DNA from: an uncultured bacterium
GTDB lineage: Bacteria; Eisenbacteria; RBG-16-71-46; CAIMUX01; WJJG01
Direction: 5' to 3'
Length of the DNA stretch: 64,000 bases
Assembly: GCA_964573295.1 (NCBI GenBank)
Contig: CAZNJE010000002.1
Coordinates: 31,351-95,350 of the forward strand
Shown here: one piece after another, positions 10,925 through 58,201 of the stretch
Layout of the letters: each line of letters begins with the position of its first letter
How positions within the stretch are numbered: position 1 is the stretch's first letter
Notes under the pieces: generated by a model
Told to the model about the DNA's origin: nothing
Databases searched by the model: none
What the model saw: only the letters and a program-made list of their open reading frames with translations
Program-made: the position numbers and the translations under genes

Positions 10925-10978
10925 CGTACGCTCCTATGTCATGAATTGCGTGGTCGATTGCAGCCTGGATGGGTTCCC

Positions 10979-12340
10979 CTACGGTAGCTGGCCATGCTCA
11001 TCGAGCCACGACCAGCCCTCTAGCCAGAGATCATCGCCGAAGGAGCCCACGTAGGTGGCCGACGCGTCGAAGAACGGGTCATTCGGGAGTTGATCGGCGT
11101 TCTCAGCCTTGAGCGCCTCGCCTCCCATCGCGGGAAGCGGGTCGATCGACTCACTCCCCAGAGTCATGTCGATCGTTCCCAGTCCGGGGTCGATCTCGCG
11201 CACGCTCAGGAGGGAAACCACGTCGTCGTGAAGGGCGGAGGCCTTGCAGTCATGGATGATACCACTCGGGGAGAAGTAGATCGCGTTGGGTCCGCTGGCC
11301 GGAGCCTCGGCAACGATGAGGTCGAGGGAGGCCTGGTCCTTCACTCGCAGTCCGACGCCGTTCCCATTCAATATCAGTACGTTGCGGAAGTCGCCGCCGG
11401 TCCCCTCGCGCAACCGGATCATCTCGTCAGCGCCATCCCCGTCGGGCGTGCCGCCATCCGGACCCAGAAGCGTCACGTTGCAGAACTGAGGATAGGACCG
11501 GGGCTGAGCATCCATGTTGGAGCCGTCGTTGTCCATCTCGAATCCTCGCCCGCAGAAATCTCGGCCCAGGACGGCGAAGAGGAACTGCCCCTTGCCTTGG
11601 TATCCCAGGTCGCTGTCGAAGCAGTCGTCGCCGCAGTAGGCCGCACACAGATACTTGACGTTCACGGTTCCGCCGAAGAACTCGAAACCATCATCCTGGT
11701 TCCACGCCACTTCGCAGTGTTCAACGACCGTCCCACTGCCGACGCCCGCGAAGGTCATGCCGTTGATCTCATTGCCCTCGCCGATTTCTCGTCCGCCGTA
11801 CCAGACCCGTACGTATCGCAGGATGCCGCTGCTGTCGGTGGGATCATCCCCCCCATAGGACACGCCCGCGATGCCTTCGACGAAGAGTTCCCCGCTTCTG
11901 TTGACGGGAGCCTTGCCCAAGAGTACCAGCCCGCCCCAAAGACCACGCTGCGGGAGGACATCCTCCGAAAACGCGGTGGTGAAGGTAATCGGCTTGTCGC
12001 GGGTTCCATCGGCGATGATCTGTGCCCCGGGTTTGACCACCAACACCGAGGCGCGTCCGACTTGGTCATAGGGCAAGCCCTTGATGACGGTTCCGGGCTC
12101 GATCGTGAGTGTCACCCCTTCATCGACGAAGGTCTGACCGGTGAGGAGGTATTCGTTCTCGGCCGAGAGGTGCATGTCCTCGGCAATCGTGCCACTCAGC
12201 TGAATGACGTCGCTCGATGGTTGCGTAGCGCTGTCCTTGGTGCATCCCGTTGGAACGACTGCGGCCAGACTGAGAAGCGCAAGCGTTCGAATCCAGCGCT
12301 TGCCGCATACCGGCCTGACAATTCTCATCACGGATATCAT
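10979..12340 (-). CDS. Lipoprotein of unknown function (Gly/Asp-rich, possibly beta-helical)
   Basis: Signal peptide with lipobox (VVPTGC) and GGAGG SD. Immediately upstream of, and co-oriented with, the TonB-dependent receptor. Confidence 0.6.
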   Translation of the reverse strand: MISVMRIVRPVCGKRWIRTLALLSLAAVVPTGCTKDSATQPSSDVIQLSGTIAEDMHLSAENEYLLTGQTFVDEGVTLTIEPGTVIKGLPYDQVGRASVLVVKPGAQIIADGTRDKPITFTTAFSEDVLPQRGLWGGLVLLGKAPVNRSGELFVEGIAGVSYGGDDPTDSSGILRYVRVWYGGREIGEGNEINGMTFAGVGSGTVVEHCEVAWNQDDGFEFFGGTVNVKYLCAAYCGDDCFDSDLGYQGKGQFLFAVLGRDFCGRGFEMDNDGSNMDAQPRSYPQFCNVTLLGPDGGTPDGDGADEMIRLREGTGGDFRNVLILNGNGVGLRVKDQASLDLIVAEAPASGPNAIYFSPSGIIHDCKASALHDDVVSLLSVREIDPGLGTIDMTLGSESIDPLPAMGGEALKAENADQLPNDPFFDASATYVGSFGDDLWLEGWSWLDEHGQLP

Positions 12341-12376: not shown

Positions 12377-12889
12377 CTACTTGTGGATTTGAGCGAGACT
12401 GAGTATGGCTTCATCCCACTCTCGTGATTCCTTCTTCGAGGAGGTCACGTTCAAGAGAATCCTCGGCTTGCTGGCGACTACACCGACTCCCAGGGTCACG
12501 CCCTCTTCCACGAGATGCGGCAGGCCGGTCAAGGAAAGGACATGGTTGGATTGAGTGAACGCCAGCGCGTCGGACAAGCTCGCTTCGTCTCCGATGAACA
12601 TGGCCGCCGGAACGGAGGAAGGCAGGGCATCGCCCTGCTCGACCGATGCAAGCGTGGCCCCGCCAATGCTGCGGCCTTCCAGCTTTTTCAGCTCCTCGGC
12701 CACCGCCGGCGCACCCAGAACATAGATCGTGATGTCTCCTCCCAAGGACTTGTCGAAAGCCATCGCTTTCGAAAGAAGGGCGGCTTGTAGATTGGGAGGC
12801 GCCTCGGTGACTTCCTGTGCCAGCGGATCACTGGGAACTACCAGCAGCGCAAGTACAGCACATAGCCCGATTGCAGCCTTCGTCGCCAT
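12377..12889 (-). CDS. Secreted periplasmic protein, YfiR/DUF4154-like
   Basis: Cleavable signal peptide. Ala/Leu-rich ~150-aa mature region whose hydrophobic periodicity resembles YfiR-type proteins commonly found beside TonB receptors. GAGGGGA SD. Family assignment is tentative. Confidence 0.45.
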   Translation of the reverse strand: MATKAAIGLCAVLALLVVPSDPLAQEVTEAPPNLQAALLSKAMAFDKSLGGDITIYVLGAPAVAEELKKLEGRSIGGATLASVEQGDALPSSVPAAMFIGDEASLSDALAFTQSNHVLSLTGLPHLVEEGVTLGVGVVASKPRILLNVTSSKKESREWDEAILSLAQIHK

Positions 12890-13376
12890 GCTATGTCTCC
12901 CCTCGTAGTGCGTTCGGCACGAGATTGGTTCCTTCTACACGTGCACCGGTTTCGAGGCTCACCTTCCCGGCCATCCAAGGAAGCCGTTGGGACAACGGGG
13001 TATCGACCCGGCTGGCGCAAGATGCCTGTGATGGTGATCTTCTGAGTTCTCGGCCTTCTGCCACCGTCGTCGTACAACCTCTCGCTGCCGGACTCGCTCT
13101 CGTTTGCGGTCGGGGGACGCGTTCGTCCACTACATGTGCTTGATCGGCGAAACCGGCGCACTACTTATGTTAGGAACATGTTAGCATCGTGTGTGCGTCT
13201 TGCTGCTCCGTACTGATCGTGGAGGCCGCGCGAGGACCCACACTGAGATCCGCGCACCCGCGGTCGGCGAGCAGCAAACACACAGTAAACACACGGCAAA
13301 CAGATCCCAATGCAGAAACCCCCTCCACGACTCGCTCACAAGCCGTGGAGGGGGCCGAACTCCAGTCGAGATGCCG

Positions 13377-18826: not shown

Positions 18827-21496
18827 CTACTCCACCACCACGATCCGGCGGGTCATCTCTTGCCCCGAGGCCTGCGCACGGATGAAATAGATACCCGTCG
18901 GCACCGCATGACCCCGCTGGTCGCGTCCATCCCAATTGATGGCCGTCTCGCCCCCGTCGAGCACGCCCAGCAGAAGGGTCCGCACGCGCCGGCCGGCGGC
19001 ATCGAATAGCTCGACCCGCGCCTCGTTCGCCGAAGGCATGCGCAGCCGCAGCGTGGTTTCCCCCGAAGTCAGCGAGGGTTCGGGCCGGCTCAGGTGCAAG
19101 CGTCCTCCCGCCAGAACATCCGGCACGCCCTGCGAGCTGCTCAGAAGATACTCCACGGTGTTCTCGAGAAGCTGGCCGGCCAGGGCGCCATCGGTGAGCG
19201 CATCGTAGTCGATGGCCAGGAACACGATCTGCCCCTCGCCGCGACCGGGCATGTCATAGACCAGGATGCCGGCACCATCCGGATAGCTGCTCGTGCCGTA
19301 GACCACCGTGGCGTCGGCCAGTGGCGAGGCCGCGTCCTGATCGCCGAAGTAGTCGTAGGTCACATCCAGCGTCGACGGCAGCGCGTTTGGCAAGGTGGCC
19401 AGCGGATGGTCGCTCTGGCTCGTCCGCAGCACGAGGTCTCCGGCGTTGTCGGTGTGGTAGTCGGATAGATGCAGCACCTCGCTCGCGATCTCGGGGTAAC
19501 CCGGACTCGAGAGCGCATCGTAGGCCACCTCGCCGCCCTCGACGACCAGCTTGCCGCCGCCGGCCACGTAGCTGAGCATGGCTTCCCGGCGTCCTTCCAT
19601 CCGCAAGGGGTTCTTGTACGAGCCTGCGCTCCAGAACACGAGGTCGTAGCCGCCCCAGGTAGCCGGCTGAGTCGTGACGATCGTCTCGCGCGTCGCGCGG
19701 TAACCGAGCGCGGTTAGATCCTCGGTCACGATATTCGTGGGGTTCTCGTCGGAGACGACCAGAATCTCGGCCCTCGCGGGAGGCAGCGCGAAGTCGAGCG
19801 TCTGGTTGCCGCTCACCGTCTGGGTCTCGGTGACCGACACGTGACCGGGTGCGCTCGCCACGATCTCGTAGGTCCCCGCCGGTACTTCGGCGGTGTACTG
19901 GGCCGTGGTCTCATCGGCTTCCACCTGAAGGAACAGCTCCCCGGTGTCACTCCGGTAGACCGCCACCATGGCACCGGTGAGCGGCTGACCCGTCCCGGCC
20001 TGGTTCACGACGCCCGAGACATCGTACCAGGAACCGGCACGCTGAAGATGCACATCGTGGACCGTCGAGACGCCCTCGCTCACGGCGAGCGGCGACGAGG
20101 TGTAGGGCTGGTAGCCGTAGGACTCGATCTCCAGCGTGTAGGTGCCCGGCTCGAGCATGCGGTGGTAGAAGCCGCCGTGCGCATCGTTGTAGATTGCTTT
20201 GCCGATTTCGCCCACGTCGATCGTCGCTGGTACGGGGTTGCCGGTAGCAGCGTCGGTGATCACGCCCTCGATGCCGTTGCGCGCTTGGGCCAGCAGCCAC
20301 AGCATGGCGTCGCGATTCTCGTCCCAGAAGCTGGGCAGCTGATAGGCCGGCGGCCACTTGACGTTGCTGAGCTCAATACAGAAATGGAGTTCGTTGCGCC
20401 AGTTGTACGCCCAATCCTGGAAGCCGCCGTGGATGACGTACCATTCCCAGCCGATCGTGACGCCCTGGTAGAATTGGCCGCTGTTCCACATCGGCGGGTT
20501 GCGATACGAGTAGCCCAGCGCCAGGTTGTGTATCTGGTCGTGGTCGGGCGTGTATTGCCCGTAGAAGCAGTCCCACGGATAGTTCACCACCAGCGCCCCG
20601 CCGTGGTAGTTGACGCCGATCGTGAAGTTGTAGTCGTACTGCCAGATCATCATGTGCTGGACTTCGGTGGGCCGGCCCTCGGGGTCATCGTTGGGATCCT
20701 CGAGCGGGTCGGGGAAATTGCGGTTCAGGTCGTAACCGCTCGCGTTGTAGCGCGTGCCGGCGGCGTTGCCGTCCGGGTTGTGCAGGGGGCAGATCCAAAT
20801 CTCGAGATCGTCGACCAGGGCGGTCAGGTCCGGGTCGATGCCGTAGTTCTCCACCAAGAGCCGGATCAAATAGACGCACATCTCCATGCCCACCACCTCA
20901 TCACCATGGATCGTGGCGGTGTACTTGAAGGCCGGCTCGGGCTCATCCTCGGTCACGTTGTCCGAGAGCTTGAGCATCCACAGCTCCCGACCCTCCTCCG
21001 ACTGCCCGATCGATGTGAGCATCGCGATATCGGGATGGTCGCTGGCGATCTGCTGCAATTCCGCCGTCAGGGACTCGTAGGTGTGATAGTCCTCACGCCC
21101 CGGGGCGCGCAGGCCGGCGTCGACATCAGCCTTGAACTGCAGGAAGGCCCTACGCGCCTGGTTCGGAATGGCCTGGATCCGGTAGCCCGCCGACTCGAGA
21201 TCGGCGAAGGCGGCGTCATCGACGTAGGCCGTCACCCGCGCCCCGTCGAACTGATCGATATCGATCTCCCCAGCCTCGAGGGCCGACAACTCGAAGGGCG
21301 TGGCCACCTCGATCTGGACCGGGAAACGTCCCGTAAAGGGACAGCGATCCGCCTCGGTCGGCAAAGAGCCCTCGGAGGGAACCGCCTCGGCCAGGGCGAT
21401 CGTCACGGCTCCCCATCCCGTGAACAGAAGCAAGCAGGCCAGCGCGGTTGCGAGGTGCTGGATTGCGTTCGGGAGCCATCGGGCCATTCGGCGCAT
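18827..21496 (-). CDS. M14-family zinc carboxypeptidase with carboxypeptidase-regulatory-like and T9SS-type C-terminal sorting domains
   Basis: Signal peptide, HGDEVVG / NPDG M14 motifs, C-terminal ...TTLRLRMP...VELFDAAGRRVRTL...GIYFIRA tail. AGGAGG SD. Confidence 0.85.
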   Translation of the reverse strand: MRRMARWLPNAIQHLATALACLLLFTGWGAVTIALAEAVPSEGSLPTEADRCPFTGRFPVQIEVATPFELSALEAGEIDIDQFDGARVTAYVDDAAFADLESAGYRIQAIPNQARRAFLQFKADVDAGLRAPGREDYHTYESLTAELQQIASDHPDIAMLTSIGQSEEGRELWMLKLSDNVTEDEPEPAFKYTATIHGDEVVGMEMCVYLIRLLVENYGIDPDLTALVDDLEIWICPLHNPDGNAAGTRYNASGYDLNRNFPDPLEDPNDDPEGRPTEVQHMMIWQYDYNFTIGVNYHGGALVVNYPWDCFYGQYTPDHDQIHNLALGYSYRNPPMWNSGQFYQGVTIGWEWYVIHGGFQDWAYNWRNELHFCIELSNVKWPPAYQLPSFWDENRDAMLWLLAQARNGIEGVITDAATGNPVPATIDVGEIGKAIYNDAHGGFYHRMLEPGTYTLEIESYGYQPYTSSPLAVSEGVSTVHDVHLQRAGSWYDVSGVVNQAGTGQPLTGAMVAVYRSDTGELFLQVEADETTAQYTAEVPAGTYEIVASAPGHVSVTETQTVSGNQTLDFALPPARAEILVVSDENPTNIVTEDLTALGYRATRETIVTTQPATWGGYDLVFWSAGSYKNPLRMEGRREAMLSYVAGGGKLVVEGGEVAYDALSSPGYPEIASEVLHLSDYHTDNAGDLVLRTSQSDHPLATLPNALPSTLDVTYDYFGDQDAASPLADATVVYGTSSYPDGAGILVYDMPGRGEGQIVFLAIDYDALTDGALAGQLLENTVEYLLSSSQGVPDVLAGGRLHLSRPEPSLTSGETTLRLRMPSANEARVELFDAAGRRVRTLLLGVLDGGETAINWDGRDQRGHAVPTGIYFIRAQASGQEMTRRIVVVE

Positions 21497-42257: not shown

Positions 42258-43763
42258 CTAGTTCCCGGGCCTGGCGTAGGATGCGCCTCCCACACTGAAG
42301 GCCGACGGCACACTCACCGTCACCCGCCCGGTGATGGCGGCCAGCGCTTGGTCGAGGTCGGCGATGATATCATCAGTATGCTCGCCACCCACACACAGAC
42401 GCACCAAGTTCGGCGGAATGTCGGCCATTTTGCGTCCTTCTTCACCCTGTTGTGAATGCGTCGAGATCGCCGGGATCGTGGCGACCGACTTGATCCGTCC
42501 CAGGTCGGTGGCCCGCCAGATACGCTGCATGGCATCGAAGACCGTGCGGGTCGGCGCCGCCCCGCCCTTGACGCGGAAGGACATGAGGTGGCCGTAGCGG
42601 TTGACCTTCTCCCCGTACTGCTTATCAAACTCACTGTCGACCAGATACAGATAGCGGCTGGCCAACTCGTGCAGAGGATGCCCGGGGAGACCGAGGTAGT
42701 CGACCTGCTCGATCTGCGGGTGCGAGCCCAGGAATTCAGCCACGGCCATCGTGTTGCGACTGAAGAGATCCACCTTCGACCGTAACGTGCGAATGTCGTT
42801 GAGTGAGAGGATCGCGTTCATGGGCGAGAGGTTCTGCCCGTTGTCGCGGTTGGGCAGCGTCTTCAAGTACATGGCGAAATCGCTGGTCATTTCCTCGGAG
42901 GCATACCGACAGGTCAAGTTCTTGCGCGCGATCACCGCGCCGGCAATGCCGAAGCCCGAGGAGGTCAGCGTCTTGGTCACCGACTGGATGACGACGTCGG
43001 CGCCGTGGCAGAGCGGTCGCAGCAGCGCTGGTGAAGCGACCGTGTTGTCGATGATGAGCGGCAGACCGTGCTGGTGCGCGATCTGGGCTACGCGCTCCAG
43101 ATCGAAGAAGGCCTGGCCGGGATTCGACGGCAGCTCGCCATAGAGAAAGCGCGTGTTCTCATCGATCTTCGAGACCCACTCCTCGGCATCGGCTGAGTTG
43201 ATCACCCACCGGCACTCGATACCCCGCTCCTGCATCTTACGGACGGCAAACTGCTGGAACGTACCGCCGTAGACCTGGCAGGTAGCGACAAAGTTGATCG
43301 GCCGGCTGGGCTCCTTGGAATCGACACACAGGAAGGCGTCGGTGGCACTCAGGATCGCCGCCATGCCCGAGGAGGTGGCCACGCAGGAGGTCTCCCCGTC
43401 GAAACCGTACCCCTCGAGCATCGCCAGGGTGTTCTCGAGATAGTAGAGACTGGGGTTGGCGATGCGCGAATAGCACCAGGTCGGGATCTGGTAGCCGAGC
43501 GCCGCTTCCATCTCGTCGGAATCGCGATAGGCCTGCGAGGACGCCATGTAGATCGGTTCGATGATCGAGCCCTGATTGTGATTCAGAGCCTCGTTCATCG
43601 TGTAGAGGCCGTGGACGGCGATCGTGTCGAATCGGCAGGCGCGCATCTTGCCAAGCGCCTCGGCACGCTGCTGAGCCGCCACCTCGGCCGCCTTCACGTA
43701 ACGGGCCACGCCGCCGTCTCCCGCGCTGCCTGTGTTCTGCTGCTGCATGCTTTCATCCGCCAT
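42258..43763 (-). CDS. PLP-dependent Cys/Met-metabolism enzyme (O-acetylhomoserine aminocarboxypropyltransferase / MetY-like)
   Basis: Family similarity including the SVTKTLTSSG lysine region. AGGAGGGG SD. Confidence 0.8.
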   Translation of the reverse strand: MADESMQQQNTGSAGDGGVARYVKAAEVAAQQRAEALGKMRACRFDTIAVHGLYTMNEALNHNQGSIIEPIYMASSQAYRDSDEMEAALGYQIPTWCYSRIANPSLYYLENTLAMLEGYGFDGETSCVATSSGMAAILSATDAFLCVDSKEPSRPINFVATCQVYGGTFQQFAVRKMQERGIECRWVINSADAEEWVSKIDENTRFLYGELPSNPGQAFFDLERVAQIAHQHGLPLIIDNTVASPALLRPLCHGADVVIQSVTKTLTSSGFGIAGAVIARKNLTCRYASEEMTSDFAMYLKTLPNRDNGQNLSPMNAILSLNDIRTLRSKVDLFSRNTMAVAEFLGSHPQIEQVDYLGLPGHPLHELASRYLYLVDSEFDKQYGEKVNRYGHLMSFRVKGGAAPTRTVFDAMQRIWRATDLGRIKSVATIPAISTHSQQGEEGRKMADIPPNLVRLCVGGEHTDDIIADLDQALAAITGRVTVSVPSAFSVGGASYARPGN

Positions 43764-43766
43764 GGC

Positions 43767-44258
43767 TTACCCCTCCTGTGTGGTCGGGCTGCCGGCCCGG
43801 ACCGACTCGAGTGCGTACCCGTCGTCCTCTTTGACCGTCGAGAGGATCAGGAAGGTCTCCTGCTTCTCGAGGCCGCGGAGACCCGCCAGGGTGTGCTTGG
43901 CGAGCTCGCGGAGGTGATCGATGTCCCGCACGACCACATGCAGGATGTAGTCGTACTGCCCGGTGACGTGGTAGCAGGCCTTCACCTCCGGAACGCTCCG
44001 CACCTGCGCCTCGAAGGCATCGATCACGCCCGGTTCGTGCCGGTTGAGATTGATCTGAACCATGGCCTGCACGTGCAACCCCAGGGCATGGGGATCGAGT
44101 CGCGCGTGATAGCCGGTGATGACACCGCGCTCCTCCAGGCGCCGCACGCGTTCCAAGGTGGTCGAGGGAGCCAAGCCCGACTGGCGTGACAGCTCGACGT
44201 TGGTCACCCTGCCCTGCGCCTGCAACAGAGAGGCCAGTTTGAGATCGGTGGTGTCCAT
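43767..44258 (-). CDS. Lrp/AsnC-family transcriptional regulator
   Basis: HTH (DLKLASLLQAQGRVTNVELSRQSGLAPSTTLERVRRLE) plus RAM domain. Confidence 0.85.
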   Translation of the reverse strand: MDTTDLKLASLLQAQGRVTNVELSRQSGLAPSTTLERVRRLEERGVITGYHARLDPHALGLHVQAMVQINLNRHEPGVIDAFEAQVRSVPEVKACYHVTGQYDYILHVVVRDIDHLRELAKHTLAGLRGLEKQETFLILSTVKEDDGYALESVRAGSPTTQEG

Positions 44259-44541
44259 GGCGGAATCCTATCGTTGAATATTCGTAAATCACAAGCACTC
44301 ACGAGTCCTTTATTCGACAAAGCGGCCGAATTGCAAGATCATTATTCACCTTTATTGCATCCAGATCGAATCTGACTCGATCTCCCCATCACCTACTCCA
44401 GCCCATGAGAATGGCGGCCCCAGCACGCTGCCGGGGCCGCCTCTATTGTCCTCAGACTGATCCGCAATCGCTTCCGCAATCGCTCGGCAATCGCTCCGCG
44501 ATGTCTCCGGGATGTCTCCGCGATTCTCCGCTACTCCTCCG

Positions 44542-45366
44542 CTACTTCTCCGCCTGATGCATCACGACCTGCGGGAAGGGAATCTCGATGCCGTTGGTGT
44601 CGAACTCCTCCTTGATCTTGCGCGTCAGGTCGAACTTGACGCCCCAGTAGTCGGAGGTCTTCACCCAGGGACGAGCGACCAGGTTCACACTGGAGTCGGC
44701 CAGCTCGGATACGGCGATCTGATACGCCGGATCTTTGAGCACGCGCTCGTCGGACTCGAAGGTCTTCTTGATGATCTCCTCGGCCTTGGCGATCGAGGAG
44801 CCGTAGCCGATGCCGAAGACCATGTCGACCCGGCGGGTGTCGTTGGCGGTGATGTTCTTGATCGTGTCGCCGAAGATCTTGCTGTTGGGAATCATGATCC
44901 TGATGTTATCCGGCGTGGTCATCTCGGTCGTGAAGATGCCCATGTCCCGGATCGTGCCGGCGGCCCCGCCCGCGTCCACGTAGTCACCGATCTTATACGG
45001 CCGGAACACCAGCAGCATGATCCCGGCCGCGAAGTTCGAAAGCGAGCCCTGCAGCGCAAAACCGATGGCGAAGCCGGCCGCACCCAAGACGGCGACCAGC
45101 GAGGCGGTCTCGACCCCGAAGTTGCCCAAGGCGGCCACCACCGCGAAGATGATCACCAGGTAGTAGACGATTGCGCTCGTGAAACCCACGATGGCCGGAT
45201 CGGTCTTCGAACGGGTCATGGCGTTTCGAACCAACTTGCGCGCCCAGCCAGCAACGATGCGACCGGCGATCAGCACCAGAATGGCGCCGATCACACTTAT
45301 CCCGTAGGTGGTCGCGAACTTGACGATCGTGTTCATGATCTGTTCCATCGTGCTCAGTTCTTCCAT
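44542..45366 (-). CDS. MscS-family small-conductance mechanosensitive channel
   Basis: 3 TM plus MscS beta-domain (FRPYKIGDYVDAGGAAGTIRDMGIFTTEMTTPDN). GAGGAGGAGAGG SD. Confidence 0.85.
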   Translation of the reverse strand: MEELSTMEQIMNTIVKFATTYGISVIGAILVLIAGRIVAGWARKLVRNAMTRSKTDPAIVGFTSAIVYYLVIIFAVVAALGNFGVETASLVAVLGAAGFAIGFALQGSLSNFAAGIMLLVFRPYKIGDYVDAGGAAGTIRDMGIFTTEMTTPDNIRIMIPNSKIFGDTIKNITANDTRRVDMVFGIGYGSSIAKAEEIIKKTFESDERVLKDPAYQIAVSELADSSVNLVARPWVKTSDYWGVKFDLTRKIKEEFDTNGIEIPFPQVVMHQAEK

Positions 45367-45468
45367 CTGCCTCTCCTCCTCACCGGCGCCGCCCGGGGCG
45401 CCTCACTTGTGTCGATCTCGTGATCGCGATACCGATCTCCTGGTCGTCCTCTCTAGCACCAAGAGGGG

Positions 45469-46395
45469 TTAGAACAGCGTGTAGCTCAAGCCCAAACCCA
45501 ACGTCTCGCGGAACCGGCCACGCTCGTCGATCTCCTTGTCGTACAGCAGCTCGGCAAACAGGCTCACCTGGATGTATTTGGCGACATTGGCCGAGAAGGT
45601 GTTCTCCCAGGCCAGGTCAGCGGTCTTCCAGTCGTCGTTCTCGAACTCGTCTTCTTCGGAGTTGAAGAGCGCTTGGAAGACGCGCAGCTTCGAGACGTAC
45701 TTCAGGTTGTCGCCGCCGAAGGTGTGGGCGAAATCGGTGACCCACTCCAGGCCGCCGTCGGTGACGCTCTCGCTGTCGACCTCCTCGGGATCATAGTCGA
45801 CGACATTCTTCATGAGATGCTGCCGCATGGCGAAACCGACGCGGGAGAAGAGCTCAGTCTGCTCATTCTTGAGGATGCTGCGCCCCAGGCCCACCGATTC
45901 GGTCAAGGTGATCGGGTCGAGGGCCTTATTCAAACTCTGCGTCGAATCCGCCTCGTTCGTGTGCACCTTGTAGAACTGACTCTCGAAGGTGAACGCGGCA
46001 TAGGGGTCGGCGAAATAGCCCAGGGTCATTCGCAATAACGACTCGAAAAACATCCGGTCGGTCGACTTCTCCGGCGACTCCCATTGGCGCTTGCGGTCAT
46101 CACCGATGTACTCGTTGTGCGTCTGCCCGAAAGCCAGCTTCAGTGTGTTACGCCAGTCGAACTGCTCGCTGAGCCTTTTCTCGGCCGTGACGTTGGCCTT
46201 GGCCGTCCAGATGATCGAGCCGTTCTCCTCGCCATCCCACGAATCGCTGTAGCTGGCCTGGTTGAGGTTGAGCGACAGATCCGCCGTCGTCTGCCAGCCG
46301 GTCACGGGTTCTTCCTGCCCGGCCGCCACGCCTACTCCCATACCCGCTGCCATCAGCAGCCCTACCCACAGCGACACCATCATCCTCGTCTTCAT
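45469..46395 (-). CDS. Putative outer-membrane beta-barrel protein
   Basis: Signal peptide, alternating amphipathic beta-strand pattern, C-terminal ...LGLSYTLF aromatic terminus. GGAGG SD. Confidence 0.55.
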   Translation of the reverse strand: MKTRMMVSLWVGLLMAAGMGVGVAAGQEEPVTGWQTTADLSLNLNQASYSDSWDGEENGSIIWTAKANVTAEKRLSEQFDWRNTLKLAFGQTHNEYIGDDRKRQWESPEKSTDRMFFESLLRMTLGYFADPYAAFTFESQFYKVHTNEADSTQSLNKALDPITLTESVGLGRSILKNEQTELFSRVGFAMRQHLMKNVVDYDPEEVDSESVTDGGLEWVTDFAHTFGGDNLKYVSKLRVFQALFNSEEDEFENDDWKTADLAWENTFSANVAKYIQVSLFAELLYDKEIDERGRFRETLGLGLSYTLF

Positions 46396-46732
46396 GGCAC
46401 AAGATCCTCCCTGGCGTGACCAGATCTCGGCCGTGCCACGACCCGTCCGGGCACGACACGTCCCCGTGATGAATTCACGCCCCTTTTGGGGTTCTCCTAT
46501 CGAGAGTGGTCTTGAGATTGCACTCTACGTTTCACACGTTCTGCGGGGCCGGAGAAGCGCACGGCCCGCCCACTTCACGGCCAGCATGATGAAGCGAACC
46601 ATCGTTGCAAGAGAAGGTTCCGTCCCGCGGAGCCTGGGAATGGTGGAGGACAACGCTTGCCGATGTCAAGCGCGCGTGGCCGGAGATGCCTGTCACGAGA
46701 GGGCCCGAGGCCACCTAAGCGCAAGCCCCGAG

Positions 46733-50690: not shown

Positions 50691-53657
50691 CTACCGCGAG
50701 ATCACGATCCGCGCCGTCCGATCCAGACCCTGGTCCCGGGACGCCAGACGCAGGAAATACACACCGCTACCAGCCGTCTGCCCCGCCTGATCCCGGCCGT
50801 CCCAGCGCAACAAGTGCAGGCCGCCGTCCAGATGGCCGTCGTGCAGGGTGCGCACTCGCCTACCACCGGCATCGTAGAGGGCCAGCTCCACATCGGCGCC
50901 CTGCGGCAAGGCCAGGCGAATATGGCTGCCGCCGAGGGTGGGGCTACTGGCACTGAAACTGAGCGCGGAGGCGAAGGCCGTCTCACCCGGCACCGAGGAA
51001 ACCGCGTCACCGAAGTTGAAGGTCACCTCATCGATCCAGAAACCAGGACCGTTGACGTATCCGTCCGAGCCAAACTGCACGCGGAAGGCGAACTCCTCGG
51101 AGGCATACTCGGAGACATCGAAGACCGCGCCGGTCCACTCTCCGGTCGAACCCGACCAACCCGGCTCGTAAGCGATGCCCGAGAGCGAAACCGACGGGTA
51201 ACCGCCATAGGGGTGTACGGTCACCCACGCATTCGTGGCCGCCGACCACACCTGGACGTTGGCGCCGTCGTAGCCGGTCTCGGTCTCGCACCAGTAGTGG
51301 AAACTCAGGAAGAACACCTCTTCGCCGGAGAAGTCGTAGGTGGGGCTGGTCAGAAGCCCGTAGACGTTGTCACCGTAGTTGGCGTCCATGCCAACGCCGA
51401 AGCAGTAGTCACCGCTGAAGCCCGCGGAGGGCCCGCCGGCGGTCGGCGTGGCACGCTCCCAGATCGGATCGGAGGCGAACCCGCCGTCGCCTCCCTCGAA
51501 GTCCTCCTCAGCCGGTGAGAGCTGCCCGATCAGGCTGAACTCGGTGCGAACGTCTTCGGGAATCACCAGGCTGTCGACGTCGGCCCCGTAGCCGGGCAGA
51601 TCGTCGAAGCGGAAGGTGTACGTGCGCCCGGCCGGGAAGCCGGCCAGTGTCCAGCGGCCGTCGGAGCCGGTGAGGGTGGGTTCGATCGGCGCGTCCATGG
51701 GCGTGACCCGTACACCGGCCAGTGGCGTAGCGCCATCGTCGGCGAACGCGTAACCGCGCACATCGACGAGCGTCCGCGGCTCGAGAGCGAGGTCGCCCGG
51801 CGTGGTGACGCCGCCTTCAATCATGACCGGCACGACCGCCGGCTGATGGTAGTAGGCATCGAAGGTGAGGGTATAAGCATCCGCCAGCAGCGGCAGCTCG
51901 TAGATGCCGTCGGCTCCGGTCATGGTGAATGCGCCGGTCTCCGCCACCCGCACCATCACCCCCTGGAGCGCCTCGCCGGTGACCGCATCGGTCACCTGGC
52001 CGGCCACCTCGCCGATACCGCTCTGGGCCAAGGTCCAGGCGGCGGTCAGATCCGGCCGCGGGCCGATCTGCTTCCACCCGGTCTGCGGCGTTCCGGTGGC
52101 CACGAGGATGTCCCGCGCCAGCTTGGCGTTGAGCTCGATTCCGTAGGCCGCTTTGCTGAGACCCTGGAGCACGGCCACCGAACCGGTCACGATCGGCGAC
52201 GCGCTGGAGGTACCGCTGAAGCCGGCCGTGTACCACTCGGTCTCGTCCCCGCCCTGCAGGTCACCGTACCCGGTGGTGACGACCGAGTACCCCCAGCCGT
52301 GCAGATCCACTCGGCTGCCGTAATTCGTGAACCAGGCCGGTTCGAGTTCCTCTCCGTTGGTGGCGCCGCAGATGATTGCCCCCGAATCCCGGAAGTCGCG
52401 GTCGAAGAGGTTCTGGTAGACCGGGTCGTCCAGATCCTGCTCGCCGTTGCCGGCCGCCTCTACGCAGATGCGGCCGCTGGCGGTGGCCAGCAGGATCGCG
52501 TCGAAGTTATCCTGCCAGAATTCCATGCAGACATAGCCGTGCTGGCCCGAGCCGGTGGCGTTGGGGCCGGGGGAATGCAGCTCGATCAGGAAGATGTCGC
52601 CCTCATCCAGCGCCGCGGCGCATGTGTTGATGGCATCGGCCACCGAGAGTTCAGCGATCGAGACGCCGCCGACCTCGACCTCGTGGGCAATACCGGTGAC
52701 GCCGAAACCGTTGCTCACGCCGCGGATCTCACCCACCACCGCAGTGCCGTGATTACGCCAGCCGACATCGTTGTAGCTGCCGCCGGCCGTGAAGAACGGA
52801 TCCGGCAGGTCCTCGTGATCCCACTTCCAGGCGCCCTCGATGTCGAGGACCTTGACCGACTCGCCCTTGCCACCCGGTAAGGCCCAGACACCTTCGGCGT
52901 CCACGCCGGTGGGCGCCGGGTCCAGATAGCCCTGCTGGTATTCGAAGTTGGGGGTCGGGGGGATGGGATCGCCTCCGGCCAGGGGCACGAGGACGGGCAA
53001 GCCATCGGCCACACGGGACTCCGCGGACGCCTCGGGGGCTGCCACGCCACGGACGGCCAATTCGGCAGCTGCGGCGCGGGGGTCATAGGTGCCGGTGAAC
53101 GCATCGAACCCGAGCGCGGCGGGCACGGCCACCGGCTCGAGGAAGGCCGTCTCGACGGCCGGGTCCCTGAGCAGCTCTTCCAGAAGCGCCAGCAGCTCCT
53201 CCCGCTTGGGCTCAACCTGCGGCACGAGCCGGACGTAGCGATTGAGATTGGGCAGGTCCAGACCTGTGCGCGCCTCGGCGCGGGCCCGCTCGGCGTCGAT
53301 CGCCTCGGGACTGCGCGAGAAGTGCCGCTTGACCTCGAAAGGCACCGCCTGCGACGCCATCAGATGCGCGATCCGCGTGCGGGCGGCTTCGGCGGCGGAG
53401 ACTTCCGGCCCAGCGCCTGCGGTGGCGCCCAGGACGGTCAGACGGCCATGATTGGCCTCCAGGCCGGAATCCTCGGCGAACTTGACCACGATGCGCCCCG
53501 TGGGCGCGGCGGTCTGGTGATCCAGCGCCGAGGCCTTCGGCGCGGCGCCCCACCCCAGCGCCGCCGCCGGCGAAAGGTTCGCCAGTGTCACTGCGACCAC
53601 GGTCACCAGAGCCAACAATGAGATCGCGCCCAAGGCGCGGAACGTCTTCGAGTTCAT
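50691..53657 (-). CDS. S8-family subtilisin-like serine peptidase with C-terminal T9SS-type sorting domain
   Basis: Signal peptide from ATG 53657 (SD GGAGGGGGG), His (HGTAVVGEI) and Ser (GTSSASP) catalytic motifs, C-terminal ...IRLALPQGADVELALYDAGGRRVRTL...GVYFLRL tail. Confidence 0.85.
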   Translation of the reverse strand: MNSKTFRALGAISLLALVTVVAVTLANLSPAAALGWGAAPKASALDHQTAAPTGRIVVKFAEDSGLEANHGRLTVLGATAGAGPEVSAAEAARTRIAHLMASQAVPFEVKRHFSRSPEAIDAERARAEARTGLDLPNLNRYVRLVPQVEPKREELLALLEELLRDPAVETAFLEPVAVPAALGFDAFTGTYDPRAAAAELAVRGVAAPEASAESRVADGLPVLVPLAGGDPIPPTPNFEYQQGYLDPAPTGVDAEGVWALPGGKGESVKVLDIEGAWKWDHEDLPDPFFTAGGSYNDVGWRNHGTAVVGEIRGVSNGFGVTGIAHEVEVGGVSIAELSVADAINTCAAALDEGDIFLIELHSPGPNATGSGQHGYVCMEFWQDNFDAILLATASGRICVEAAGNGEQDLDDPVYQNLFDRDFRDSGAIICGATNGEELEPAWFTNYGSRVDLHGWGYSVVTTGYGDLQGGDETEWYTAGFSGTSSASPIVTGSVAVLQGLSKAAYGIELNAKLARDILVATGTPQTGWKQIGPRPDLTAAWTLAQSGIGEVAGQVTDAVTGEALQGVMVRVAETGAFTMTGADGIYELPLLADAYTLTFDAYYHQPAVVPVMIEGGVTTPGDLALEPRTLVDVRGYAFADDGATPLAGVRVTPMDAPIEPTLTGSDGRWTLAGFPAGRTYTFRFDDLPGYGADVDSLVIPEDVRTEFSLIGQLSPAEEDFEGGDGGFASDPIWERATPTAGGPSAGFSGDYCFGVGMDANYGDNVYGLLTSPTYDFSGEEVFFLSFHYWCETETGYDGANVQVWSAATNAWVTVHPYGGYPSVSLSGIAYEPGWSGSTGEWTGAVFDVSEYASEEFAFRVQFGSDGYVNGPGFWIDEVTFNFGDAVSSVPGETAFASALSFSASSPTLGGSHIRLALPQGADVELALYDAGGRRVRTLHDGHLDGGLHLLRWDGRDQAGQTAGSGVYFLRLASRDQGLDRTARIVISR

Positions 53658-53950
53658 AGCTTTCCCCCCTCCGGCCTCGACCCTCCCTAGTGAGGGCCGG
53701 TGGGCACTCGGATACGTTCCACAATTATACCGCATCCGAGGGCCGTCCCCGCCGGTGACGCCACGGGAGTGGCGCATTCCACGCAAGACCTCCACTCCCG
53801 CAACCCCCTGGCGCGGAAATGTTTCCGTCCGTGAGGCTGAAGGCGGCCGGATGGAACGTCGTCTCAATGCGCGCCCTGGGCGTGGCTCTCCGGCTGCCCG
53901 TGGGGCCGGCGAGCGCCGCCCCCCAGGTGTCTCCTGGTGCCTGAGCGGTC

Positions 53951-54379
53951 GTGGCCGCGCAAGCCAAGAAGTTGCGGTGGCAGCCACCCGAACCACAGAA
54001 TCAACCCCAACCGGCCACTGGCAGCCCTTTGGGCAGCTGCGCGGATTGGAGCGATCAAGACACGGTGTACAAAGGAGACGAGGAGTTCGGACAACTCCGC
54101 GAACTGAGTCGGGCGTACACGATGGTGGTCAGCGATTCAGTTCGCGTGCAGAACCGGATCAAGAGCCTCTATCGTTCGCGAGGGATTCCTGCCATCGGCA
54201 AGGAGGTCTACGCGCCAGCGGCACGGGAGAAGTCGCTGCGGAAGCTTCCCGCGAAAACGCGCCCCCTGGCGGCGCTCCTTTACCAGGAACTTGACGGAGT
54301 GCGCGATCTGCAGAAGCGGTCGGAGAAGGAGATGCTCGCCGAAGCCCGCCAGCACAAGATCACCCACGTTCTGTGGTGA
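53951..54379 (+). pseudogene. IS110-family transposase remnant (central linker region only)
   Basis: 142-aa ORF resembling the region between the DEDD and Transposase_20 domains of IS110-family transposases (LRELSRAYTMVV..VRVQNRIKSLY...LRKLPAKTRPLAALLYQEL). It lacks both the catalytic N-terminus and the C-terminal domain. It sits at the edge of a lower-GC segment. Confidence 0.35.
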
Positions 54380-54495
54380 ATGTCGAACTTAGCGGCCAGT
54401 TCCTCGGTGATCTTGTCCTCTCCCCAACCGGGCGTGTCGGCAGAGATGCGTTTGATGAAGGCGCGGACCACGCCGGCCAGCAACGTCGCCTCGTT

Positions 54496-55731
54496 TCAGT
54501 CCGTCCACCTGCCAAACATTGGCACAACTTCCAGCGGCCTGCCGATCAGGTCTTCCGCGTCACGGCCGTTGCCGTCTGGTGGCCCCGCGTTGAAGGCCTT
54601 CTCGACCGGCTTCCAGTTGCGGCAAAGAACGACGTCATCGGTGCTCAACCAGAAGACCCGGTCGACGGCTGGGTCGCAATCGAGTACGACCTGAACTTGC
54701 TCGCAGAAGATCCCGTTCCGATCGAATACATCCCAGACCTGGTAGATTCCTGGCGGCGGATCCAGGGCGCCACGACTCGGCAGCACCCAGAGCTTCCCAT
54801 CGGCGGCGATGCGCATGTCCATGATGTCAGGATCCGTCGGGGCCTCCCGGTACTCCATCACCAGACATCCACCCACTGATACCGATCGCACCGTGTGAAT
54901 GCTGTCCCGTTCGGAGGGGCGCCGAGAACGTGAGGGGTACTCGCGCGTGATTTTCCTGATGACATCTCCGCTCACCGATGTTTGCGTGATGCTGTAGTCA
55001 TTTCGTTCCCCCGCGAGATAGACTGACGTGTCATCGCAAGCGAATCCTGAGATCTGGTACTGCTCGGTCTCGTGACAGACCGGTACATCATCCGAGTAGA
55101 AGAAGTCGCACGTGGCAACATGATACACGGGACCGGGCGAGAAACCGAGCCGCACGCGAAGGAGGTGGCTTCTCGTTCGCGAGCCGGCCCTCCCCGCTTC
55201 GCGAATGGGATCCACATCTGCGCGGAGCGCGACAAGAAAGCCCCTGTTCCCGGCAAGATCATCCGCGACCACCTGATGGCCGGTTCCCGGAATGAACTCA
55301 CTTCCCAAATGCACGCCCTCAGTGCTGTACATGTGAATCGCGGCCGGACGGTGATCCAGAATGCAGACGGTGCTGTCATCCATCGCCAGAAGCTTCCATG
55401 GTACACGAAAGTCACCGGGGCCCTCGCCCGATTGACCAAAGCTCGCCACGCATTCCCCCCAGCGGTCAAACGCATGAACGGCGCACAATTGCCGGTCCAG
55501 CAAAAGCAAGCAGTCCCCAGCGTTGGTAAACGAGACTGGATAGCCAACCAAGCAATTGGCCCCGTCGGTGTCCAGCGGGCGACCCGACTCGAAGCCAAGT
55601 GTCTTGAGTCCCTGAGCCGGCTCGTCAGGGTTCTGGACAACCACAACGGCTCCCACAAGAGCACTCTGGGCGAGCAAGAATGCAACGCACAGAAGTAGCC
55701 TCAACACGGGCTTGTTCCCTCGCAAACGCAC
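54496..55731 (-). CDS. Secreted NHL-repeat six-bladed beta-propeller protein
   Basis: NHL-like repeats (FGQSGEGPGDFRVPWKLLAMDDSTVCILD; ...GIYQVWDVFDRNG). Putative signal peptide (R)LRGNKPVLRLLLCVAFLLAQSALVG starts at GTG 55731, or at a TTG at 55704 that overlaps the upstream stop as TTGA. Lower GC (~57%) than surroundings. Confidence 0.6.
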   Translation of the reverse strand: MRLRGNKPVLRLLLCVAFLLAQSALVGAVVVVQNPDEPAQGLKTLGFESGRPLDTDGANCLVGYPVSFTNAGDCLLLLDRQLCAVHAFDRWGECVASFGQSGEGPGDFRVPWKLLAMDDSTVCILDHRPAAIHMYSTEGVHLGSEFIPGTGHQVVADDLAGNRGFLVALRADVDPIREAGRAGSRTRSHLLRVRLGFSPGPVYHVATCDFFYSDDVPVCHETEQYQISGFACDDTSVYLAGERNDYSITQTSVSGDVIRKITREYPSRSRRPSERDSIHTVRSVSVGGCLVMEYREAPTDPDIMDMRIAADGKLWVLPSRGALDPPPGIYQVWDVFDRNGIFCEQVQVVLDCDPAVDRVFWLSTDDVVLCRNWKPVEKAFNAGPPDGNGRDAEDLIGRPLEVVPMFGRWTD

Positions 55732-55916
55732 AGGCCACTTGGCAAGAGACGGTAGAGGCACATTGTCTCGGTCGCAACGGAAACGCAGTGTCCGGCGGCA
55801 TTGCAGCCGAGCTTGGGACAAGGTGTCGGCTCGGAAGGTTGCTCTTCCGCCTGAGGCAGGACCAGAGCAGTGAAGATGGCAATCAGCAAGAGCACGCAGC
55901 ACAGAAGAGGTCTCAT
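55701..55916 (-). CDS. Small secreted cysteine-rich protein (71-aa precursor)
   Basis: ATG at 55916, 5 nt after AGGAGG. Signal peptide MRPLLCCVLLLIAIFTALVLPQA, mature ~47 aa with 7 Cys (CPKLGCNAAGHCVSVATETMCLYRLLPSGLCVCEGTSPC). Its stop overlaps the downstream propeller gene start. Confidence 0.5.
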   Translation of the reverse strand: MRPLLCCVLLLIAIFTALVLPQAEEQPSEPTPCPKLGCNAAGHCVSVATETMCLYRLLPSGLCVCEGTSPC

Positions 55917-55975
55917 GATATCCTCCTTCATATGTGTGAACTTCGGCACAGCACAGGACAGCAGGAGGGTTACAG

Positions 55976-56369
55976 AATGAAACTAGGCTGCGTGCAGCGT
56001 GTTCGTCAAGGCGCAACACGACTGTGCACGCCGCAATGCCGATCGGCCGTACTCAGCAGGAACTCCGTAAAGCACTCACGGACAGTAGTTTGGCAGATCG
56101 GCCTTCACGGTTATGGAAGACCCTACCTCTATGTCCGCGAGATCGCCCGCGTGGGCCGCCGGCCCGCGACCCTCGAACGGGTCGCGTCCACCCCTCTGGC
56201 AGATGTGCGAGAGGATCGCTGCTGGGAGGACCACATCTACCGCTACGCCAACACCGTTCCCCTGGTGGAGGAGGAAGACGCGCTGAAGGTCAACTGGTGC
56301 GAGGTAACCGTTACCTCAAAGAAGGGCAAACTCGGCCACGGCAAACAGCACCTCTCATCCGTGCCCTGA
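55976..56369 (+). CDS. Hypothetical small protein (131 aa), divergent from the Cys-rich peptide gene
   Basis: ATG 9 nt after GGAGGG. The C-terminal half has genome-typical high-GC3 codon usage. No recognisable domain. Confidence 0.3.
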
Positions 56370-56806
56370 CTCACTACATGTGCTTCCCTTCCTGGAAGGC
56401 ACTCATGGAGTTCATGATGCGTGGACTGGAGATCGGCCCGTACGAGGTCAAATGAGCCGCCCTCAGGGCGAGCTATGCCCGGGCGACTTCACTCACAGCT
56501 ATTGGGGCCCTCGCGACTGAGAAGTGACGCCCGCAACCGCGCTAACGCAGCCCCTTAGCGCCTCTCTTTCACCCCCAACCGGTCCACACCGGGGCCACGG
56601 CCCGGCCCCTCTGGACCCTTGGCCTTCTCCTGGATCCTGGGTAGCGGGATCTGCACGCCAGAATGAGAATTGCTGCGTGGGCTGCGGCTCCGCTTGATGT
56701 TTGGCTGCCGATTGCCGACTATCGGCAGAATCGCCGGCGGCCGGCCCGCGGCGACCCTGGCCAGGGTGGGGCCGCCACCATCTCAACCTCCAATCGAGGA
56801 ACGATC

Positions 56807-58201
56807 ATGAGCGAGAAAGCCTACAGCGGCAGCTGGAAGGAACAGCCCGAAGCCGCCGCCTACCTGGATGGTCTTTTCCATTCCTGCTTGCGGCACTTCC
56901 CGGCCTTGGAATGCTTGGCAGGCCGCGTGCTCGATGAAACCAGCTCGCGACTCTACGACTATGTCGACGCCTTCGTCCTGCCGGACACCGACGCGGTGAC
57001 CGGCCGGTTCGTGGAGCTCGGGTTCGCGGAAGAGCCCGGCGTGGCATGCGCGCCGACAGAGACGAGCTTCCATCACCCCGGCGCGATCTTCCCGCGCATA
57101 CTTCTGCGTTCGGGCGCCGGCGGCGACACGCCCCTCGGCATTCACCTACAGGTCGAGAGTCTCTCGCGCTGCCTGGCGGCGATCGGCCGGACGGCGGTGA
57201 TCGCAGGCGATCCGCTGGCCCCCTACCGCCGGGCCGTCCTGACCTCGACCGGCGAGTTGGAGTGGGTGCTGAGTGAGCGCCGCGGCACGCTCGATCACGT
57301 TCCGCCGCGGACGGCACCGGACCACGCGCACCGCTACCTCCTGGGAGTCGAGCGGTGGCTGCATCGCCAGCGCCGCTACGACCGCCTGGAAGACGGCCTG
57401 ACCGCGACCCTGAAACTGGCTCGCGATCTGGTGACCGACTTCGGCCGCGACGAAGCAGCCTGGATCGCCTTCGAGGCCGAGCGCATCTACTGGGAGCAGC
57501 GCAATCTGACCGCGCGCACGCAGAAGCGCCGTCTGGACGCTCTGGGCCTGGGCTGGGCCAACCATGATCACCACACCTTCCGCAGCTCGCGGCAGGCGTT
57601 CCCGCACCTCATCGAGACCCTCGAGACCTTCGGCTTCCAGTGCCGCGAGCAGTTCTACGCTGGGCGCGAGGCCGGCTGGGGCGCACAGGTTCTGGAGCAC
57701 CCGGTGTGCCGCATCGCCATCTTCGCCGACGTGGATCTGGCGCCCGAAGAGGTGGAGGGCGACTTCGCGCACAAGCCACTGCCCCCACGCGCAGAGCTGG
57801 GCACGGTGGGCCTCTGGTGCGCCCTCCACGGCGAGTCGATCCTGGAGGCGGGCCTCCACCACCTGGCCGGCCGGTTCGAATTCGACCGCTTTCGTGAAGA
57901 CATCACGCGCGAGGGCCGGGGAATGCTCGATCCGTTCGCCAACACCGACCTGCTGCGCCAGGCCTTCTCCGAAGGCGAGCGCTGGGCCGTCCCGCGGGAC
58001 CGCTTGGAGCGACTCGTCGCGCAGAAGGTCATCGATCAGGAGCAAGCCGACCGCTTCGGGACCCAGGGGGTGATCGGCAGCCACATCGAGAACATCCAGC
58101 GCGGACTGGGTTTCAAAGGCTTCAGCCAGAAGAGCGTGAGCGACATCATCCGGCGTACCGATCCCCGGGCCGAGGGCGCGAGCGCGGGAGGAGGCCAATG
58201 A
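56807..58201 (+). CDS. Hypothetical 464-aa protein, possibly DUF1338/HglS-like (not verified)
   Basis: ATG at 56807 after GAGGA. His-rich NHDHHTFRS segment. Its stop overlaps the start of the downstream 2-hydroxyacid dehydrogenase (ATGA). Confidence 0.6.
   Translation: MSEKAYSGSWKEQPEAAAYLDGLFHSCLRHFPALECLAGRVLDETSSRLYDYVDAFVLPDTDAVTGRFVELGFAEEPGVACAPTETSFHHPGAIFPRILLRSGAGGDTPLGIHLQVESLSRCLAAIGRTAVIAGDPLAPYRRAVLTSTGELEWVLSERRGTLDHVPPRTAPDHAHRYLLGVERWLHRQRRYDRLEDGLTATLKLARDLVTDFGRDEAAWIAFEAERIYWEQRNLTARTQKRRLDALGLGWANHDHHTFRSSRQAFPHLIETLETFGFQCREQFYAGREAGWGAQVLEHPVCRIAIFADVDLAPEEVEGDFAHKPLPPRAELGTVGLWCALHGESILEAGLHHLAGRFEFDRFREDITREGRGMLDPFANTDLLRQAFSEGERWAVPRDRLERLVAQKVIDQEQADRFGTQGVIGSHIENIQRGLGFKGFSQKSVSDIIRRTDPRAEGASAGGGQ

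Follow-up and report, generated by a model that had tools for sequence, protein, structure and literature searches.

What links a gene for a 71-residue, cysteine-rich precursor to the gene for a predicted beta-propeller whose start overlaps its stop codon? The two lie side by side in a 64,000-nt stretch of DNA (positions 31,351 to 95,350 of contig CAZNJE010000002.1, GenBank assembly GCA_964573295.1; hereafter the window) from an uncultured bacterium of the Eisenbacteria lineage, and all coordinates below are those of the window unless another locus is named. Together they form a self-contained two-gene operon of 1.47 kb on the minus strand (~55961-54492), which is the core of our finding and which is a real, rare and conserved module, a variant within the exported propeller proteins. 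The initial annotation, made from the sequence alone, did not recognize the pairing as a known system, and rightly so, as no described system corresponding to the pair turned up in searches of Pfam, NCBIfam, PHROGs, PADLOC and the Protein Data Bank (PDB), the last by both sequence and fold.

The upstream gene (55701..55916, minus strand; ATG at 55916, stop codon TGA at 55703-55701) is preceded by the Shine-Dalgarno sequence GAAGGAGG at 55929-55922 and a 5-nt spacer, which together occupy 55917..55929. Its product, MRPLLCCVLLLIAIFTALVLPQAEEQPSEPTPCPKLGCNAAGHCVSVATETMCLYRLLPSGLCVCEGTSPC (71 aa), consists of an N-terminal hydrophobic, signal-like segment, a short acidic and proline-rich linker, and a 39-residue C-terminal domain that contains seven Cys, one of them being the last residue of the protein. 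The downstream gene (54496..55707, minus strand; stop codon at 54498-54496) encodes the propeller, of 403 aa when read from a GTG start at 55707; the adjacent TTG at 55704 is the alternative start. As initially annotated, the two genes overlap. The shared sequence is GTGTTGA (55701..55707), in which the GTG or TTG of the propeller lies over the last Cys codon and the TGA of the peptide, and translational coupling is therefore implied. In all seven loci examined (the window, L015, L002, L012, L013, L005 and L061), a possible propeller start lies 6 to 0 nt ahead of the final base of the peptide stop codon, and AAGGAGG or AGGAGG is found 5-7 nt before the peptide start. No promoter-like site was found in a scan of positions 53600-56900, where terminator-like sites were not above their frequency in shuffled sequence, and Rfam gave no match.

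Automatic public gene calls (P0018, L063:501-1649) place the propeller start 21 codons later, giving a protein of 382 aa that has lost its signal peptide; the 403-aa form is preferred here because the hydrophobic N-terminus is kept in homologs. The peptide gene is missed altogether in one Joint Genome Institute (JGI) record (L001), and coupled small genes of this type may often escape annotation. Two further observations concern the DNA around the overlap. A 21-nt unit that contains GTGTTGA, GTCCGTGTTGAGGCCGCTTCT, occurs once in the window and in 5.3 tandem copies in L015:7913-8023 (the same in L001), where the array either adds four VLRPLLS/VLRPLLC heptads to the propeller N-terminus or shifts the real start 84 nt downstream. 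The signal-peptide DNA of the two genes (55673-55703, MLRLLLCVAFLL in the propeller; 55885-55915, MRPLLCCVLLL in the peptide) is 71% identical over 31 nt, a similarity that could stem from partial duplication or from chance.

When the co-occurrence of the two genes was followed into other genomes, the pair was found in five diverged lineages, with the peptide gene directly upstream each time and with propeller identities of 82%, ~40%, ~41% and ~25%. The loci are L001/L015 (82%), L014 (97.6% identical in DNA, with a protein match of 95%), L002-L004, L012 and L013 (~40%) and L005/L006 (~41%); the peptide is also found upstream of the propeller in L061/62. A peptide-like small open reading frame (ORF) directly precedes the propeller in every locus with a propeller identity of at least ~40%, and a peptide without a propeller was not seen in the data retrieved. 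Propeller paralogs from Krumholzibacteria, ~30% identical, lack the upstream peptide. The peptide-linked propellers make up a small offshoot clade, to which the motifs RDSI..RS.SVGGC and LCRNW are specific. The paralogs have a conserved neighborhood of their own (L007:3825-12947 and L010:2400-13275), consisting, in this order, of acetate kinase, a PhzF-like protein, an unannotated protein of 697-736 aa, two tandem propellers and a resistance-nodulation-division (RND) efflux system made up of membrane-fusion protein and pump.

An exhaustive profile search with the peptide against 1.84 billion representative proteins returned four genuine clusters (P0012, P0009, P0011 and P0080). Cluster P0080 holds the most diverged peptide, and here too the next gene overlaps, by ATGA, and encodes a product with the NHL-type motif GSEGEGPGD. 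The other matches were low-complexity or repeat proteins, together with one doubtful 82-aa protein. Among them, the large repeat proteins P0079 and P0081-P0084 were judged spurious, P0081-P0083 belonging to unrelated repeat families in Pfam and P0084 being a long tandem repeat. A metagenome scan with the alignment of the close clade gave distant NHL-like matches only, and no further pairs.

Sixteen positions of the peptide are invariant, namely C33, P34, L36, C38, G42, C44, T51, M52, C53, L54, Y55, P59, G61, C65, G67 and C71, and the conserved Cys spacing is C-x4-C-x4/5-C-x8/9-C-x11/12-C-x5-C. The precursor had initially been described by its AGGAGG site, its signal peptide and a mature region of seven Cys. 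The site, the signal-like segment and the count all stand for the window, but only six Cys (C33, C38, C44, C53, C65 and C71) are conserved across the family, the seventh, C63 in a CVC motif, being restricted to the window/L015 lineage. Compared with L015, the window peptide has 15 synonymous and 2 nonsynonymous differences in its Cys domain, with a ratio of nonsynonymous to synonymous rates (dN/dS) of 0.024, as compared to 0.55 for the signal and linker of the peptide and 0.16 for the propeller. By this measure, purifying selection on the Cys domain is very strong. The initial annotation would have been refuted by a small ORF that was not conserved or lacked a coding signature at homologous loci; instead, the ORF is conserved and its coding signature is strong. 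Furthermore, the identities of peptide and propeller co-vary (r = 0.95; 21 non-independent locus pairs), consistent with inheritance as a unit.

Both products are probably exported. The N-terminus of the peptide has the character of a Sec-type signal peptide, and the presumed signal-peptidase sites are AXA-like (ALA, AMA and AHA, with PQA in the window), which would leave mature peptides of ~43-46 residues. The propeller N-terminus, MLRLLLCVAFLLAQSALVGA, likewise reads as a Sec signal peptide and would direct the protein along the same route. The six invariant Cys of the peptide probably form three disulfides. In an AlphaFold2 (AF2) model built from an input of seven sequences, residues 31-70 have a predicted local distance difference test score (pLDDT) of ~90 and form two short beta-hairpins behind a signal helix; the Cys domain is hence predicted with confidence to fold autonomously, unlike the disordered core of a ribosomally synthesized and post-translationally modified peptide (RiPP).

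The peptide family is absent from Pfam, NCBIfam, PHROGs and PADLOC, and a Pfam scan at E up to 1 found no family other than a spurious match to DUF1980. A sequence-profile search of the PDB gave nothing significant (best E 0.53; an EGF domain of COX-2 at E 0.77). A fold search with the peptide gave no match, the method being weak for a domain of 40 residues, so that it excludes close resemblance only. Within that limit, Cys spacing and fold search speak against a defensin (CS-alpha/beta), knottin, EGF-like or metallothionein-like identity, and the defensin-like, knottin and metallothionein-like candidates offered at the outset were accordingly not borne out.

The propeller has clearer relatives. 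It reaches 21.0 bits (E 2e-4) against Pfam DUF5128 (PF17170, "6-bladed beta-propeller"), just below the gathering cutoff of 22.9. Eight homologs were found by a word-indexed search and ~60 by a profile search, most of the latter with a precomputed PF17170 assignment and several labeled Krumholzibacteria; a genome scan placed relatives of ~30% identity mainly in metagenome-assembled genomes (MAGs) of Krumholzibacteriota. The single window sequence had no match to Pfam NHL at E up to 1, while the family profile matched the NHL domains of Thin, TRIM71, TRIM2 and Brat in the PDB, with E-values from 1.9e-27 to 8.8e-12 and one to four matching stretches each. The AF2 model, built from a 52-row alignment, shows six four-stranded blades (pLDDT 88.9, predicted template modeling score 0.88). 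The best matches by fold as well as by profile are NHL domains, and matches to enzymes are no better than those to non-enzymatic propellers. The label of NHL-like six-bladed propeller, already given in the initial annotation, is thus correct as far as the model goes, and no specific activity is indicated. NHL-type propellers typically serve as binding platforms. We regard the protein as a new, divergent member of the uncharacterized DUF5128/NHL-like group.

How far, then, does the unit extend? DNA homology to L015/L001 is limited to positions 54492-55961 of the window, i.e. the two genes and 45 nt upstream (~1.47 kb), and the surroundings differ between lineages. In the window, the neighbors are an S8 subtilase and a 464-aa protein; in L001/L015 they are an MBL-fold hydrolase, a 5'-nucleotidase-like protein and ATP-binding cassette (ABC) exporters; in L002/L003 they are fumarase-like, nitroreductase and major facilitator superfamily (MFS) genes. 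No maturase, transporter, protease or immunity-like gene accompanies the pair across the contexts compared, and no further gene is common to them.

The pair also differs from its surroundings in base composition. The initial annotation had described a low-GC islet (GC being guanine plus cytosine content) at 53951-56460, dropping to 55-58%. A shift does persist in windowed analysis, with 500-bp windows over 54000-56500 at 0.58-0.62 and flanks at 0.66-0.72, but the dip is shallower than proposed, the islet as a whole having 60.3% GC and the window a mean of 64.3%. Nor is it the only one in the window. At synonymous sites, the shift is genuine: GC at third codon positions (GC3) is 0.69 in the propeller, 0.64 in the peptide, 0.73 in the fragment of an IS110 transposase and 0.71 in the frame of an ISNCY transposase remnant (both described below), about 2-3 standard deviations below the mean of the ORFs in the window (0.81 ± 0.056, n=41). 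Two other stretches, 7800-11000 and 43700-46700, have a total GC of ~0.60 like the islet, but a normal GC3 of 0.81-0.88, so their low GC results from amino-acid composition, and low total GC alone is therefore an unreliable island marker in this genome. Their translations, read by eye, look like membrane or envelope proteins (TonB-dependent-receptor-like, MscS-like and outer-membrane-like). In the 82% relative L015, the pair is again GC-poorer than its own flanks.

On either side of the operon lies transposase debris. To the left, on the plus strand, is a remnant of an IS110-family transposase (53951..54379; part aligned to the hidden Markov model ~54065-54358). It matches positions 113-215 of the 343 of NCBIfam transpos_IS110 (E 1.2e-5), positions 111-149 of the 155 of Pfam DEDD_Tnp_IS110, i.e. 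the last 39 (E 0.005), and the transposase PHROG 2199 (E 5.6e-4), with no match to Transposase_20. It is thus a remnant, as initially read, of which only the stretch linking the RuvC-like DEDD domain to the C-terminal Tnp domain is left, both catalytic domains being missing. Between it and the propeller stop codon is a spacer (54380..54495) with a 35-codon fragment on the minus strand (54380-54483); the idea that this was the N-terminal helix-turn-helix of an rve-type transposase was dropped, as no family or plasmid match was found.

To the right, a divergent 131-aa ORF (55977-56369) with its own Shine-Dalgarno sequence had been taken to complete the unit. An AGGAGG is indeed present upstream, and GC at the three codon positions is coding-like (0.65/0.48/0.71), but the ORF is not kept in relatives and has another origin. 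Its residues 81-119 match residues 234-272 of a 402-aa ISNCY transposase of Nostoc punctiforme (WP_234711115.1) in BLASTP, with 46% identity over 39 aa (E 9e-12). The decayed ISNCY-family (DDE_Tnp_1-like) remnant as a whole spans 56217..56434 on the plus strand: 56217-56333 corresponds to residues 234-272, 56334-56366 (GHGKQHLSS) to residues 323-331, and the frameshifted stretch 56357-56434 to residues 370-395, with 54% identity. A tblastn search against plasmids gave E 4e-4, and the transposase searched against the window aligned as two pieces, each in a different frame (E 3.5e-8 and 1.6e-5); no uninterrupted DDE ORF of ~400 aa was found, only these pieces. The first 26 codons of the 131-aa ORF read through the upstream region of the peptide operon, and codons 27-131 lie, together with the ISNCY remnant, in a segment of ~468 bp (~56056-56524) that blastn and pairwise alignment show to be absent from the 97.6%-identical L014. 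The ORF is also absent from the 82%-identical relative L015/L001, and it has no PADLOC or PHROG match. On these alignments, it is a chimeric frame over a frameshifted and internally deleted ISNCY DDE transposase pseudogene, not a partner gene, and is to be removed from the unit.

By blastn, L014, a contig of another MAG, also lacks a 107-bp stretch (54336-54442), so that both indels between it and the window fall in the insertion sequence (IS) debris on either side of the cassette. The Logan assembly L063, which represents the same sequence as the window, is interrupted within the ~468-bp segment, ~229 nt upstream of the peptide, a break that suggests population-level variation at this indel region. 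A 14-nt direct repeat, TCAACCCCAACCGG / TCACCCCCAACCGG, occurs near both low-GC borders (54001-54014 and 56569-56582); as insertion scars, this repeat and a 12-nt one at 53794/56527 were rejected, being within chance expectation (about five such 14-nt repeats are expected).

Taken together, we propose that the pair is an autonomous, horizontally moved cassette whose exported products form a stoichiometric complex, with the mini-protein as a ligand or small subunit dedicated to the propeller, a reading to which we give an even chance. The strong ribosome-binding site would drive translation of the 71-aa precursor, and ribosomes finishing the peptide would restart at the overlapping propeller start, yielding the two products in a fixed ratio. 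Sec-type signal peptides would take both out of the cytoplasm, the peptide would mature to a mini-protein of ~45 residues with two beta-hairpins, six invariant Cys and probably three disulfides, and this would dock on the propeller to give a two-chain periplasmic or extracellular binding module. The cassette would move independently of its neighbors, and here it would sit in a ~2.6-kb patch of foreign synonymous-site composition between IS110 and ISNCY remnants; being so bracketed, the patch most likely owes its arrival or rearrangement to mobile elements, now decayed. That dN/dS is far lower in the Cys domain than in the signal and linker or the propeller fits a structural partner and not a toxin in an arms race. 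This purifying selection, the predicted autonomous fold, the ~1:1 coupling and the lack of accessory genes favor a complex, none of them being decisive. A bolder version, to be taken as tentative and distinctly less probable, is that of an obligate two-chain exported complex of a type undescribed in bacteria, a split "disulfide-rich module plus propeller" in which the six-Cys subunit creates or gates a binding or catalytic site.

Several observations weigh against this proposal. The exhaustive peptide profile search revealed no fused (Rosetta-stone) architecture of peptide and propeller, the presumed cleavage site of the window peptide has a P at position -3, and the propeller could be an enzyme. 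As to mobility, no target-site duplication or att site was found around the islet, GC3 near 0.68-0.69 is also found in window ORFs such as 7320-9188 and 12380-12934, and the composition of the propeller matches that of the host in the L002 and L005 lineages. The horizontal acquisition suggested in the initial annotation, for which the GC3 shift, the IS remnants and the non-syntenic contexts speak, is therefore plausible, on circumstantial grounds.

If the propeller does act on the peptide, the two could instead be enzyme and substrate: a periplasmic propeller would process or modify the peptide, e.g. by trimming, cyclization or cross-linking, into a secreted bioactive peptide, making the pair a minimal Sec-dependent maturation module. 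That a small peptide gene directly precedes a larger one, the probable export of both products, and the invariant Cys that always ends the peptide would suit such a module. We nevertheless find it unlikely, as the peptide begins with a Sec signal peptide and not a recognition leader, its core is predicted to be folded and is extremely conserved, and none of the contexts contains a transporter, a protease, an immunity gene or a maturase of a known class. Moreover, coupling would give an output of ~1:1, while substrates are usually made in excess, and the enzyme matches of the propeller do not surpass its non-enzymatic ones.

An antagonistic pair, in which the mini-protein is an antimicrobial, toxin or inhibitor that the propeller sequesters as immunity protein or carrier, or in which the peptide inhibits an activity of the propeller itself, appears a shade more unlikely still. 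Toxins and inhibitors are common among secreted disulfide-rich mini-proteins, tight co-expression is a feature of toxin-immunity pairs, and a location in mobile-element debris with varying contexts is common for competition genes. Against this, the dN/dS of 0.024 signifies purifying rather than diversifying selection, PADLOC and PHROG gave no match, and a soluble propeller of 400 aa is not a normal immunity protein. Of the roles initially envisaged for the module (peptide maturation, binding or toxin-like), maturation and toxin activity thus lack specific support, given the absence of accompanying genes, the predicted folded domain and the purifying selection. Finally, although the window peptide has no family annotation and some gene callers miss the peptide or start the propeller at an internal codon (382 aa), it is highly improbable that the genes are merely co-transcribed neighbors with unrelated functions, or even that the small ORF is no real gene, since pairing and start-stop overlap persist down to ~25% propeller identity, no peptide was ever retrieved without its propeller, and 15 synonymous versus 2 nonsynonymous differences in the Cys domain are a decisive coding signature.

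With regard to the genes next to the pair in the window, the S8 subtilase (50691-53996, minus strand) is a large, secreted protein with CarboxypepD_reg, MAM-like and C-terminal FlgD_ig domains (988 aa in a public record). A role of the peptide as inhibitor of this protease was considered and dropped, as the protease is not a neighbor at other loci. Similar FlgD_ig-like C-terminal regions are found in the window ORFs 13380-13667 and 18836-19099, and they may serve as a common tag for sorting or anchoring. The 464-aa ORF to the right of the islet (56807-58201, plus strand) has a host-like GC3 of ~0.83-0.85 and no match in Pfam, NCBIfam, PHROGs or PADLOC.

Bacteroidota, Krumholzibacteriota and related phyla encode many exported DUF5128/NHL-like propellers. 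A strictly coupled and strongly conserved Cys-rich partner provides a concrete, testable hypothesis for such a propeller, i.e. that it has a defined ligand or subunit, and the proposed two-chain complex, if true, would offer a first clue to the function of the large family of DUF5128 propellers in the Fibrobacteres-Chlorobi-Bacteroidetes (FCB) group. The peptides themselves constitute a new family of bacterial mini-proteins, predicted to be disulfide-rich, with the four clusters found among 1.84 billion representatives. The practical benefit will stay modest as long as no activity is known, the module being rare and so far confined to uncultivated organisms.

Among known systems, RiPP clusters differ from the pair: they have a non-Sec leader, a recognized maturase and usually a protease or transporter, whereas here the N-terminus is signal-like, such genes are lacking, and no Pfam or NCBIfam maturase was matched. 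PADLOC and PHROG hold no match for either the peptide or the propeller. In Bacteroidota, small proteins of the NVEALA family are annotated beside genes for six-bladed propellers, and the likeness would be that of a small exported-protein gene adjoining a DUF5128-like propeller gene, while the present peptide lacks the NVEALA motif. A full-text literature search found no papers on DUF5128, NVEALA or PF17170, and a broader search gave only unrelated papers.

In eukaryotic mosaic receptors, such as the low-density lipoprotein (LDL) receptor with its EGF module and YWTD propeller, or proteins that join PSI to Sema, a beta-hairpin-rich Cys module of ~40 residues likewise stands beside a six- or seven-bladed propeller, and the CP...G.C motif of the peptide is reminiscent of EGF. 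Here, however, the two are separate polypeptides, the Cys spacing lacks the C-x-C of EGF, and there was no fold match. The quinoprotein amine dehydrogenases resemble the arrangement proposed, in that a small exported Cys-rich subunit associates stoichiometrically with a periplasmic propeller: methylamine and aromatic amine dehydrogenase (MADH and AADH) combine a heavy propeller subunit with a Cys-rich light subunit, and quinohemoprotein amine dehydrogenase (QHNDH) combines a propeller beta subunit with a small cross-linked gamma subunit. These enzymes have seven blades and Trp-derived quinone cofactors (tryptophan tryptophylquinone, TTQ, or cysteine tryptophylquinone, CTQ), and they depend on accessory genes, namely mauG or, of the radical-SAM type, qhpD. 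The present module has a six-bladed propeller and a peptide of ~45 residues with six Cys; Trp is absent from all mature peptides, none of the contexts contains an accessory gene, and the likeness is best taken as a functional analogy only.

The nearest relatives remain the exported propellers of the DUF5128 (PF17170)/DUF4221 type of the FCB group and the NHL domains of Brat, Mei-P26 and TRIM71. To our knowledge, no function in bacteria is known for the DUF5128/DUF4221/NHL-like exported families. The window propeller shares with this group the predicted six-bladed fold, a repeat motif of the type D-x-Q-L...V-F-D..G-x-F...G-x-G-P-G-x-F and the N-terminal export signal. It differs by falling just under the Pfam cutoff and by belonging to a clade with a dedicated upstream partner, which its paralogs do without.

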